Assembly: GCA_038087875.1 (NCBI GenBank)
Contig: CM075988.1
Coordinates: 22,632,001 to 22,696,000, forward strand
DNA from: Malacoraja senta
Lineage: Eukaryota
Reading direction: 5' to 3'
DNA length: 64,000 bases
Positions within the stretch are counted from its first letter, which is position 1, and each line of letters begins with the position of its first letter. A model generated the notes under the pieces. That model saw only the letters and a list, made by a program, of their open reading frames with translations. It was not told the origin of the DNA and searched no databases. Both the position numbers and the translations under genes were made by a program. This document shows, piece after piece, positions 32,039-35,447 of this stretch.

Positions 32039-34966
32039 TAGGCAGCAACTCTACCGCTGCGTCACTGTGCGGGTATTGCATGCTGCTCTGTTCACCTATT
32101 ACATGAAGGTTGTGAGTGAAGGCTTTGGAGAGGGTGCAGAAGAGGTTTACCAGAATGCTGCCTCCCTGGATTAAAGGGTCAGCTACAAGGAGTGGTTGGA
32201 CAAACATGGATTAATTTATCCAGTGCTATGTAAGCGAAGGGGAGACCTTTGCCCCAGGGTAGAAACGTCAAAGATTAGAGGGCATCGTTTCAAAGTGAGT
32301 CACAACATTTGAAAGAGATGTGTGGGTCAAGTTTTTTTAACATGGATGTGGGGGGGGGGGGGGGGGGTAGAGTCTGGAGCCTGCTGCAAGGGGTGGTGGT
32401 GGAGCCAGATACAACAATGGCATTTAGGAGGCTTTTAGATAGGCACATGGATATGCAGGGAATGGAGGGATATGGACAGAGGAGATTAGTTTAAATTGCC
32501 ATCATGTTCAGCACAGACATTGTGGGCCGAAGAGCCTCTTCCTGTGCTGTACTGTCTTATGTTCTATGTTGTAAATCAAACATCATATCCCAGTCACCAC
32601 CCTACCTGCGATCAGTAACCTTAGTACCAACTAAATACTTGGGAGGAGGCTTCTGATTCATGTTTTTCAGTGCGAACCATTTTTAGTTGAACTTAAATGC
32701 AGTCTCTACAAAAGAATATTGGGATAACATTTCAGGCCCTCGGGCATTTTCTGCCATTCTATAAGACCATGGTTGATCTGTGATCTAACTCTATACATCC
32801 ACTTTTCCTCCATATCTGTTATCACCCTTGGTTCGCGAATGCATATGTTTCCCCGACTTAAAATTAATATTTGATCCAGCATTAGGTGGCCTGGCAGCGC
32901 AGCAGCAGAGTTGCTGCCTTACAGCATCAGAGACCCGAGTTCGATCTTGACTACAGGTGCTGTCTGTACGGAGTTTGTACGTTCTCCCCGTGACCTCCAT
33001 GGGTTTTCTCCAGGTTCCTCCCACGCTACAAAGATGTACAGGTTTGGAGGTTAATCGGCTAGGTATAAATGTAAAAAATTGTCCCTAGGATAGCGTTAGT
33101 GTGCGGGGATCGCTGGTCGGTGTGGACCCAGTGGGCCGGTGGGCCTGTTTCCGCGCTGTATCTCTAAAACTAAAAAAAAAACGAAACCTTTAACAGTTGA
33201 CACCTACAATTTGAAGTGTATTGAGCAGCACAAGTGTCTGAGAGAGCTTCCCCTCTCTCCTGGACGCTACAACAGTACAACAATGCTGCGACTGCGATTC
33301 TTGCAAACAGGAAGCTCTTGACAATGCATCTCCTTCCAATATCCGTGTGTCGATAGGGCAAGGTGGCTCGAACCGTCAGCCCTTATTGTTCGAGTTGTTT
33401 CAACCCAGGAGCGTCCAACTTGAGACCGATGTTAACTCTCACTAAAATTAGCTGCAAGATGGCGTAATTGCAAAACAATTATTGGCAGAAAGTCAAGTTA
33501 GTTTTGCCTCATGATTTATATCGGCACAAGCTGTCTCGTTCACCTTCCCTTTTGACCGAGCCTTTTCACCTTGTTTTCTCATCGCAAGATGGTTCTGAGT
33601 TTGAGTTTTGAGTTGACTTTGGAGATACAGCACCTACACTAGCGCTATCCTACATACCTTTTACCGAAGCCAATAAACCAGCAAACCTGCATGTCTTTGG
33701 AGGTAGACAAATGTGCTGGAGAAAGTCAGCGGGTGTGGCAGCATCTATGGAGCGAAGGAAATAGGCAACATTTCGTGCCAAAACCCTTCTTCAGTCTTTG
33801 GAGTATGGGATGAAACCAGAGCACCCGGAGAAGACACACGGGGTCACAGGGAGAATGTACAAGGAACGTCCTTTAAATCTGAGGCTGTGCCCTCTGGTCC
33901 TAGTTCTCCTCTGCGCTCTTACTAATGCAACCACTTCCATGCTGTAGTGTGGCAACCAGAACTGTAGACAACACTCCAAGTGCAGTCTAACTTTGTATAG
34001 CTTTGTATAGCTCCAACTGGATATCCCTACTTTTATACTCATGCCTCAGCATTGGCAAGCATGCCAAATGCCTTCTTCTCTATCCATGTCATCATTTTTA
34101 GCCAACCATGAACTTGCATCCCAAGGTCTCTCTGTAGAACAACATACCGAAGATCTTGGTAGAAACAAAGAACTCTAGATACTAATAAACTAAAGGACAC
34201 AAAGTGCTGGAGTTACTCAGCGAGTCAGGCAGCATCTCTGTAGAACATGGATAGGTGATGTTTTGGGGCGGGACCCTTCTTCAGACTGATTGAACACCTA
34301 AGATCTCCTTAGAATCAAATTGTAATTCAAGATTCAAGAGAATCCCTTGATTCAGGCTTTTAAAATCCAATTCAAATTCAAATAATTTTTTTTGTGTTAT
34401 GCAGAAGAATTAGGGGAACAGGGATAGGTGAGTATTCCTGCAGGAAGGAACGGCATTTTATGCATTCTGTAAAAGTTAAATGATGTATAAGGACACATTT
34501 ATAATGACACTGCATGTAAATGCAAGAGCAAATCTCTCCACACCACATGATGTCATCAGATTAGGATATTTCTAATACTTTAGTTAAGATTAGTTTAGAG
34601 ATACAACGTGGAAACAGGCCCTTCCGTCCGCCAGGTCCGCGCTGACTAACGATCACCCGTACATTGGTTCTGTTATCCGAGCTTCGTGTCCTTCACACTG
34701 GGGGGGGGGGGGGGGGAATTTGTAGAAGCCAATTAACTTATAGACCTGCACAGCATTGAGGTGCGGGAGGAAACCGGAGCACCTGGAGAAAACCCACACG
34801 GCCACAGGGAGAACGTCCAAACTCCGCACAAACAGAAAAAACCCAAGGTCAGGATCGCACCCGTGTCTCCGGCGCTGTAAGGCAGCAACTCTTACCGCTG
34901 CGCCTCCGTGCTGCCCTCTTTCTGATGGTATAATCTGATTTGTTGTATTTCCCCAGTGTTTAGTCT

Positions 34967-35020
34967 GGGGTGGGAGATTGCAACCTTCACGTGGTCCGCC
35001 CTGTTTCGACGAATGCAATC
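34967..35020 (+). ncRNA. Minimal HDV/CPEB3-like self-cleaving ribozyme (predicted)
   Basis: P1 GGGGTGG (34967-73) / CCGCCCT (34996-35002) with a G1-U wobble. P2 GATTGCA (34976-82) / TGCAATC (35014-20). P3 ACC / GGT. L3 TTCACGT. G35003 for P1.1. Vestigial P4 (T-TTCG-A). J4/2 CGAA with catalytic C35010. Confidence 0.85.
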
Positions 35021-35105
35021 AACCCGGCGTGCACAATCAAACAAGATCAAATAGAACAAGTTGTCCTACAACTTTAGGCTGTGCACGCCATACGCAAGAA
35101 GAAGA
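34967..35105 (+). mobile_element. 139-bp ribozyme-headed SINE-like retroposon
   Basis: Perfect TSD AGTGTTTAGTCT (34955-34966, 35106-35117). (AAG)n tail. 3' stem GGCGTGCACA (35026-35) / TGTGCACGCC (35080-89). No Pol III boxes. Confidence 0.9.
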
Positions 35106-35129
35106 AGTGTTTAGTCTCACCACGAATGA

Positions 35130-35447
35130 GGCGGCACGGTGGAGCAGCGGTGGAGTTGCTGCCTTACAGGGCCAGAGACCAGGGTTCAATCCTGACTACG
35201 GGTGCTGTCTGTACAGAGTTTGTACGTTCTCCCCGTGACCTACGTGGGTTTTCCCTGGGTGCTCCGGTTTCCTCCCACACTCCAAAGACATGCAGGTATG
35301 TAGGTTAATTGGCTCTGGTAAAAAATTGTGAATTATCACTAATGTATGTAGGGTAGTGCTAGTGTACGGGGATCGCTGGTCGGTGCGGACTCGGTGAGCC
35401 GAAGGGCCTGTTTCCGCGCTGTATCTCTAACCTAAACTTAACTAAAC
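35130..35447 (+). mobile_element. Full-length V-SINE (HE1-like)
   Basis: tRNA head with A/B boxes, V-domain, CR1-like 3' end (GCCGAAGGGCCTGTTTCCGCGCTGTATCTCT) and (AAACT)n tail. Confidence 0.9.

Follow-up and report, generated by a model that had tools for sequence, protein, structure and literature searches.

A young, dispersed skate retroposon family with a predicted minimal HDV-like ribozyme at its 5′ end

The long interspersed nuclear elements (LINEs) R2, L1Tc, baggins and RTE, together with some non-autonomous short interspersed nuclear elements (SINEs), are described as leaving their co-transcripts by means of ribozymes of the hepatitis delta virus (HDV) type, and genome searches are reported to have yielded hundreds of intergenic HDV-like copies with a conserved downstream and a varied upstream sequence (PMC6765202). 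Here, we discuss a 139-nt insert at positions 34967-35105 of a stretch of DNA from the skate Malacoraja senta (assembly GCA_038087875.1, contig CM075988.1; the whole stretch of 64,000 nt that was analysed is referred to as the window). The first 54 nt of the insert are predicted to form a minimal HDV-like ribozyme. R2 SIDEs and NARTc appear to be the nearest non-autonomous analogues. The R2 SIDEs of Drosophila are likewise non-coding, carry a 5′ HDV-like ribozyme and a 3′ end that is used by the reverse transcriptase, and depend on co-transcription; they are, however, site-specific in 28S rDNA and have both ends in common with a living R2 parent (PMC3414825). The skate family, in contrast, is dispersed over varied targets, has a predicted ribozyme of only 54 nt and came without a parent in the searches described below. 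The original prediction, a reading of the window from its letters, had likened the element to R2 SIDEs, and the likeness extends to the non-coding body and the HDV-like 5′ end but not to the targets or to the ends shared with a parent. Because no autonomous LINE sharing either end was found, the part of the analogy that would make the element an internal-deletion derivative is unsupported.

In Trypanosoma cruzi, NARTc/L1TcRz offers another short non-autonomous retroposon with an HDV-like head that frees the element from co-transcripts (PMC3383444, PMC3185411, PMC6765202), but there the head is 77 nt long, also acts as an internal promoter and is common to the autonomous L1Tc, and the host is a protist (PMC3383444, PMC3185411). 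RTE and baggins elements are presented as promoter-less and as being cut out of host transcripts by an HDV-like ribozyme at their 5′ end, which is the route proposed here, although they are autonomous LINEs (PMC6765202). For RTE-related elements, microsatellite tails have been reported whose first base is correlated with the first base of the duplication (PMC6007223). The schistosome Sm-alpha element is similar in being a short non-autonomous SINE-like retroposon with its own self-cleaving ribozyme, but that ribozyme is of the hammerhead class and the element is transcribed by RNA polymerase III and often arranged in tandem (PMC6765202).

With respect to the ribozyme itself, the mammalian CPEB3 ribozyme (RF00622) is the best Rfam match. 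It is a conserved single-copy intronic sequence and has a full P4 hairpin, whereas the element described here is multi-copy, has a P4 stub and differs in its P2 and P3 sequences; with thousands of copies and a score of 15.6 against the 35 bits set for that family, the head does not qualify as a CPEB3 ribozyme. The minimal HDV-like ribozymes (drz-Mtgn, theta ribozymes) resemble the head in that P4 is absent or vestigial and the length is ~50-60 nt, but ~99% of them are reported from gut bacteriophages, often beside tRNAs, while in the present case the ribozyme would form the head of a eukaryotic retroposon (PMC10879173). The head agrees with this P4-less minimal form, as only 6 nt (UUUCGA) separate G37 from the predicted catalytic C.

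As read from the window sequence, the 139-nt insert is bracketed by perfect 12-nt direct repeats, of which the left one, AGTGTTTAGTCT, recurs identically on the right. The insert opens with GGGGTGGGAGATTGCAACC and closes with CAAGAAGAAGA, and its 3′ terminus is (AAG)3A. When the 163-nt stretch comprising the insert and both repeats was compared by BLAST with the 64-kb window, the stretch itself and the two 12-mers were the sole matches, and the self match was the sole alignment longer than 20 nt. Sequence and BLAST therefore confirm the insert of 139 bp between perfect 12-bp target-site duplications, with its (AAG)n end, that had been proposed originally; position 34967, the G1 of the predicted ribozyme, directly follows 34966 and is indeed the first base after the duplication. 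The features are as follows.

34955-34966, + strand: left target-site duplication, AGTGTTTAGTCT; identical 12-mer at 35106-35117.
34967-35020, + strand: predicted minimal HDV-like ribozyme of 54 nt, with predicted cleavage at 34966/34967 (descriptor, Rfam alignments and fold).
34967-34973, + strand: 5′ strand of P1, GGGGUGG, with its partner CCGCCCU at 34996-35002 (from the sequence; duplex -11.3 kcal/mol).
34976-34982, + strand: 5′ strand of P2, GAUUGCA, with its partner UGCAAUC at 35014-35020, forming the pseudoknot (from the sequence; duplex -7.4 kcal/mol).
34983-34995, + strand: P3 (ACC/GGU; 34983-34985 with 34993-34995) around L3, UUCACGU, which equals the Rfam CPEB3 consensus.
35003-35009, + strand: G37, the P1.1 partner of C22, followed by the UUUCGA stub that replaces P4 (from the sequence; G-U after P1 as in the CPEB3 consensus).
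35010-35013, + strand: J4/2, CGAA, with the predicted catalytic C at 35010; aligned to CGAA of CPEB3 and CUAA of F. prausnitzii.
35025-35090, + strand: 3′ structured domain with a 10-bp stem (35026-35035/35080-35089) and an inner hairpin (35058-35074); minimum free energy (MFE) -23.0 kcal/mol.
35096-35105, + strand: (AAG)3A tail; tail length differs between copies, from 3 to >10 repeats.
35106-35117, + strand: right target-site duplication, matching the left 12-mer.

The element is present in many copies. With the 139 nt as query, the window's own assembly (1.94 Gb, 6,182 contigs) yielded 492 first-look candidates. Forty of them were scored, each with an identity of 95-100%; the alignment begins at nt 1-2 in 39 cases and at nt 5 in the remaining one, and its end lies at nt 136-139 in every case. 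The first 19 nt match the genome 8,235 times at no more than one mismatch, while the reversed control gives 0. A 19-nt core of the 3′ half matches 3,333 times; this figure is too low, as the window copy differs at nt 76 from most members of the family. De-duplicating the loci by their upstream flank left 63 independent full-length copies, and 58 of these have G at the same first position. In 38/63 copies a direct repeat without mismatch, 7-14 nt long with a mode of 11, adjoins G1 without extra bases and resumes past the tail; permitting one mismatch raises this to 46/63. As the loci were picked by similarity or sequence patterns, such proportions are not an unbiased census. The target-site duplications differ between copies, yet they adjoin an identical first base, and each copy carries from three to more than 10 AAG units in its tail. 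By comparison, the tail of NARTc and L1Tc is poly(A). The genome search thus bears out the expectation of many copies that open at the same G with differing duplications and variable (AAG)n tails. Contigs from four runs, labelled as four organisms, show the same limits: upstream of 34966/34967 and downstream of 35104-35107 the copies are no longer related in sequence (agreement 0.32-0.41). Contigs that stop at 34967 were not taken as support, since any repeat boundary would produce them.

At the 38 sites with exact duplications, T is found at -2 in 21, a pyrimidine at -1 in 29 and A or G at +1 in 34. These preferences fit a priming of the AAG tail on a nicked target. The T stretch near -10 that has been reported for plant RTE-related SINEs (PMC6007223), an RTE-type target signature, was not seen among the 38 sites. 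Identical ends, differing duplications and a variable simple-repeat tail are the marks of a LINE-dependent non-autonomous retroposon, that is, of a SINE in the broad sense; judged by these marks, the insert is one copy of a young, dispersed retroposon family of the LINE type (target-primed), and a full-length one, as first proposed, since its ends are common to the copies across the genome. A SINE in the strict sense has a head derived from tRNA, 7SL or 5S RNA, with an internal promoter for RNA polymerase III; ARAGORN detects no tRNA-like gene in the element, and Rfam gives no match to a tRNA, 7SL or 5S family at E values up to 10. Of the earlier description as a promoter-less SINE-like element, the lack of a tRNA or other known small-RNA head is therefore borne out by ARAGORN and Rfam, while promoterlessness itself is a proposal.

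Sampling 20 places by the exact 5′ 19-mer gave 10 ordinary full-length copies, 2 with an internal deletion and 1 truncated copy. In 4 places a truncated copy is joined to a C-rich satellite, and in the remaining 3 the sequence past nt 19-24 is unrelated. The satellite-joined copy (at G000:C1 near 1.416 Mb, 1.418 Mb, 7.527 Mb and 7.536 Mb) is without the 3′ strand of P1 and truncated near nt 100, and the satellite is CCCTCCCTCTCTACCCCC-like; because its upstream flank recurs, this dead copy is now part of a larger duplicated unit. At two separate sites, G000:C4:62229511-62229544 and G000:C6:2875814-2875847, the 3′ strand of P2 is directly followed by the reverse complement of the element's first bases, and these are head-to-head inverted junctions. 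A mini-copy at G000:C1:355371600-355372150 consists of the 54-nt ribozyme and ~19 unrelated nt within a flanking direct repeat of 9-10 nt; it looks as if a 3′-truncated or chimeric RNA had been retroposed.

All helices that the original prediction had drawn in the first 54 nt are present in the window sequence without mismatch. P1 has 7 bp with two wobbles, G1.U36 and U5.G32, the former joining G at 34967 to U at 35002. P2 consists of 7 Watson-Crick bp and P3 of 3 pairs that close L3, UUCACGU. P1 is followed by G37, the 6-nt UUUCGA stub and CGAA with its C (nt 44) at 35010, and the 3′ strand of P2 ends at 35020. Helices, L3, stub and J4/2 are accordingly as drawn. The head shows the traits of the HDV-like class, i.e., the nested double pseudoknot, the G1.U wobble at the base of P1 and a C, predicted to be catalytic, which opens a short J4/2 right before the 3′ strand of P2.

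A generic descriptor of the HDV-like fold was used to assess how readily such an arrangement appears by chance. It calls for a 7-bp P1 opening with G.U, a P2 of at least 5 bp, a Watson-Crick P3 of 3 bp, an L3 of 7-8 nt that includes C, a G following P1 and, immediately ahead of the 3′ strand of P2, C-N-A-A. On either strand of the window it has one match, starting at 34967. It has 0 matches in 35 dinucleotide-preserving shuffles (4.45 Mb scanned) and 0 in 200,000 composition-matched shuffles of the 60-nt head, and in 555 kb of natural sequence from the loci its matches are 49 starts of family copies and a single G-run outside the family. The agreement of the head with the HDV fold is much closer than expected by chance, and a chance origin is further disfavoured by the need for the match to begin at base 1 of the element. 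A metagenome scan for the ribozyme core gave no match.

Infernal points the same way. Among 4,227 Rfam families compared with the 163-nt stretch, the best match is CPEB3_ribozyme (15.6 bits, E 0.081), followed by HDV-F-prausnitzii (14.4 bits, E 1.4). Both of these HDV-like models place G1 at 34967 and the end at 35020, and nothing else aligns to the head. The nested MFE structure of the 54-mer is exactly P1 plus P3 (-12.4 kcal/mol), with both strands of P2 left free. Moreover, L3 UUCACGU and J4/2 CGAA had been said to match the CPEB3 ribozyme, and in the Rfam alignment both are identical, as are the G-U after P1 and a 7-bp P1 opening with GGGG. In the published description of the CPEB3 core, L3 contains the pair U20.G25, P1.1 combines a single G-C with a single U-U, and the catalytic C lies in a J4/2 of 4 nt (PMC4836649); the counterparts in the element stand at the same numbering, i.e., U20, G25, C22-G37, U21/U38 and C44.

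Variation within the family was considered at two levels. Shared variants, taken as those that reach at least 10% of the family contig depth when the contigs of four runs are aligned to the locus, are few. The pair is preserved by G>A at nt 32, where U5-A32 takes the place of the U5.G32 wobble; at nt 42, G>A is unpaired and lies in the loop of the stub. G>U at nt 45 (31-45% of depth) changes J4/2 from CGAA to CUAA, which is the F. prausnitzii HDV-like consensus in the Rfam alignment. The variants at nt 59 and nt 76 lie outside the 3′ domain or in its loops, and that at nt 101 affects the final base of the loop in the inner hairpin. At the predicted catalytic C, no variant reaches 10% of depth. 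As the variants at this level are only unpaired or pair-preserving, the amplifying lineages have changed only at such positions. This pattern is suggestive and would favour the fold, on the strength of a handful of sites. The window copy itself is of a minority lineage, since C at nt 76 is T in ~99% of contig depth. Single copies, on the other level, decay mainly at CpG, of which the head has four; C44>T, one such change, is present in 4 of 75. The 75-copy sample had been selected by sequence, and conservation of the catalytic C or of the helices among copies was rejected as evidence.

The 3′ part of the element is structured as well. A 10-bp stem closes nt 59-124 and encloses a 7-bp inner hairpin; this domain has an MFE of -23.0 kcal/mol (z = -4.9), a stability that none of 500 shuffles attained. 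Some LINEs recognise a 3′ stem-loop together with the repeats of the tail. By analogy, the 66-nt domain is presumed to be the element by which a reverse transcriptase recognises the RNA.

These features can be accommodated in a model that we consider probable, in which a minimal P4-less HDV-like ribozyme sets the 5′ end of a retroposon family that is carried in host transcripts and reverse-transcribed in trans. The 139-nt element would then be non-coding and LINE-dependent, built almost entirely from a pair of RNA modules and a tail of repeats. Inside a longer host transcript, the 5′ module (nt 1-54) would fold and cut immediately 5′ of G1, and the RNA freed by this cleavage would start with the element's own first base. 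The 66-nt stem-loop domain and the (AAG)n tail would be used by a reverse transcriptase supplied in trans, presumably a LINE enzyme. Target-primed reverse transcription would proceed from nicks at T-Y/R sites (nicked between Y and R), with micro-homology between tail and target, and result in the 7-14-nt duplication. Because the cDNA would reach the 5′ end, each new copy would again have a complete ribozyme. The self-cleavage, the dependence on read-through and the identity of the reverse transcriptase are what we infer in this model.

The original prediction anticipated an autonomous LINE sharing both ends with the element. Four genome patterns were used, each of them a fixed family word adjoining non-family sequence. 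Non-family sequence upstream of nt 63-82, of nt 93-116 and of nt 114-135 gave 99, 27 and 9 matches, respectively, and non-family sequence downstream of the ribozyme gave 51; all were family copies, and no flank recurred in any of the four sets. What set these copies apart were small indels, truncations or internal deletions. At three divergent places that were inspected, the downstream sequences are unrelated to each other; nor was a LINE body present at the 20 places sampled by the 5′ 19-mer. Of the (AAG)n runs of at least three units in 340 kb, 67 are tails of the family and 7 are unrelated singletons; a second family is not among them. Searching the genome for the reverse-transcriptase domain RVT_1 gave 159,858 first-look candidates, of which 150 were scored, and the genome is accordingly rich in reverse-transcriptase genes. 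The four intact loci that were fetched from the top matches represent one L1-like family, which is not an obvious partner because its tails are A-rich. This L1-like family has many copies, a reverse-transcriptase open reading frame of up to 1,271 aa and AATAAA in its A-rich tails, and, by its sequence, appears to have been recently active. The anticipated LINE was thus not found by the four patterns, the tail survey or the sampled reverse-transcriptase loci. These searches need exact words of 19-24 nt, and a partner below ~90% identity or one alike in its tail only would escape them.

Several results weigh against the proposed model. The descriptor was written after the candidate had been seen, and its rates are therefore indicative only. 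The ranking and register of the HDV-like Rfam models agree with the original prediction, but both scores are below the gathering scores (15.6 vs 35 bits for RF00622 and 14.4 vs 44 bits for RF02682). The matches appeared on the 163-nt stretch only, where the filters are laxer, and no HDV-like Rfam match was obtained when 2 kb around the site were searched; the two models presuppose a P4 hairpin and have no means of scoring the P2 pseudoknot. Judged by its nested MFE, the 54-mer does not fold better than shuffled sequences (z = +0.74; 779 of 1,000 are at least as stable), and a working P4 as short as UUUCGA is itself only predicted. Since copies are neutral, conservation among them is uninformative with respect to function. 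Compensatory double changes were not seen; among 75 copies there are six double changes, each of them a gap or a non-pair, and the family is too young for compensatory covariation to be available. Among the near-identical partners that the four patterns and the tail survey can detect, no LINE was found, and a 3′ end in common with a partner LINE was not seen among such sequences. Finally, the 24 runs consist of contigs, which cannot show RNA ends, and self-cleavage is for this reason an expectation from the fold.

The foremost alternative is that the family is an ordinary SINE whose internal promoter has escaped recognition, in which case G1 would be the start of transcription and the HDV-like fold coincidental or vestigial. 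A fixed transcription start would also yield precise 5′ ends, and this explanation is compatible with an unremarkable nested MFE of the head, with Rfam matches below threshold, with an element that has no TTTT run and with a cleavage at G1 that is predicted. Yet ARAGORN finds no tRNA-like gene, the two families out of 4,227 that align to the head are both HDV-like ribozymes, and the descriptor match begins exactly at base 1 and is absent from both the 4.45 Mb of shuffled sequence and the 200,000 shuffles of the head; we therefore regard an ordinary SINE as unlikely. That the fold reflects a chance resemblance, the head of a real retroposon being merely drawable as an HDV fold, is very improbable. 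It is true that the helices were drawn post hoc by a reader who was seeking them and that covariation is lacking, but the descriptor gives at most ~1 false positive in 0.7 Mb of natural sequence and none in 4.45 Mb after shuffling, its match lies at one pre-specified base, and two independent HDV-like Rfam models pick the same register.

It is also conceivable, though on balance we would not expect it, that the family is a SIDE-like internal-deletion derivative of a LINE with the same ribozyme and 3′ end, and that this parent is extinct, very rare, diverged or missing from the assembly. Both R2 SIDEs (PMC3414825) and NARTc, from L1Tc (PMC3383444), are reported to have arisen in this way. A layout of two modules is the remnant expected of an internal deletion, and searches with exact words of 19-24 nt would miss a parent of less than ~90% identity. 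Nevertheless, the 99, 27, 9 and 51 pattern matches are family copies only, without any recurring upstream sequence, the three divergent places are mutually unrelated, and the 20 places chosen by the 19-mer are without a LINE body. A SIDE-type origin is, as it stands, unsupported.

With respect to its surroundings, the insert is embedded in unique sequence of ~215 nt, which is flanked by a far more abundant repeat in two inverted copies (34850-34915 on the - strand and 35131-35290 on the + strand). The head of that repeat is tRNA-like in appearance, although ARAGORN calls no tRNA in it, and the contig depth over 35133-35180, within the flanking repeat, equals that over the element. The 64-kb window includes 400 N.

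Retroposons with a ribozyme head are established; the present family departs from its nearest analogues in the predicted P4-less core of 54 nt, the dispersed insertion, the lack of a recognisable parent and the CPEB3-like core. The literature consulted has nothing that joins HDV-like ribozymes with cartilaginous fish or fish SINEs, and the repeat may already be catalogued. A further proposal, which we put forward as doubtful, is that this would be the first P4-less HDV-like retroposon head in eukaryotes, on an element pared down to ribozyme and reverse-transcriptase recognition hairpin that reached >8,000 copies without a parent LINE sharing its ends, and that the CPEB3 ribozyme would possibly be the domesticated head of such a vertebrate retroposon. 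The CPEB3-like core (L3, P1.1 and J4/2) may reflect common descent with the mammalian CPEB3 ribozyme.

If the proposed model is correct, the family would provide a very small natural example of its kind, a 54-nt ribozyme with a P4 stub in a 139-nt element, in the setting of a large eukaryotic genome; the minimal form is otherwise reported almost only from phage (PMC10879173). It would represent a natural minimal design for a template of retroposition that processes itself. In this context, the CPEB3-like core is a concrete candidate for the old idea that the mammalian CPEB3 ribozyme originated from a mobile element. Moreover, the skate genome would harbour more than 8,000 potential cleavage sites, and sense-oriented copies within genes could affect mRNA integrity.

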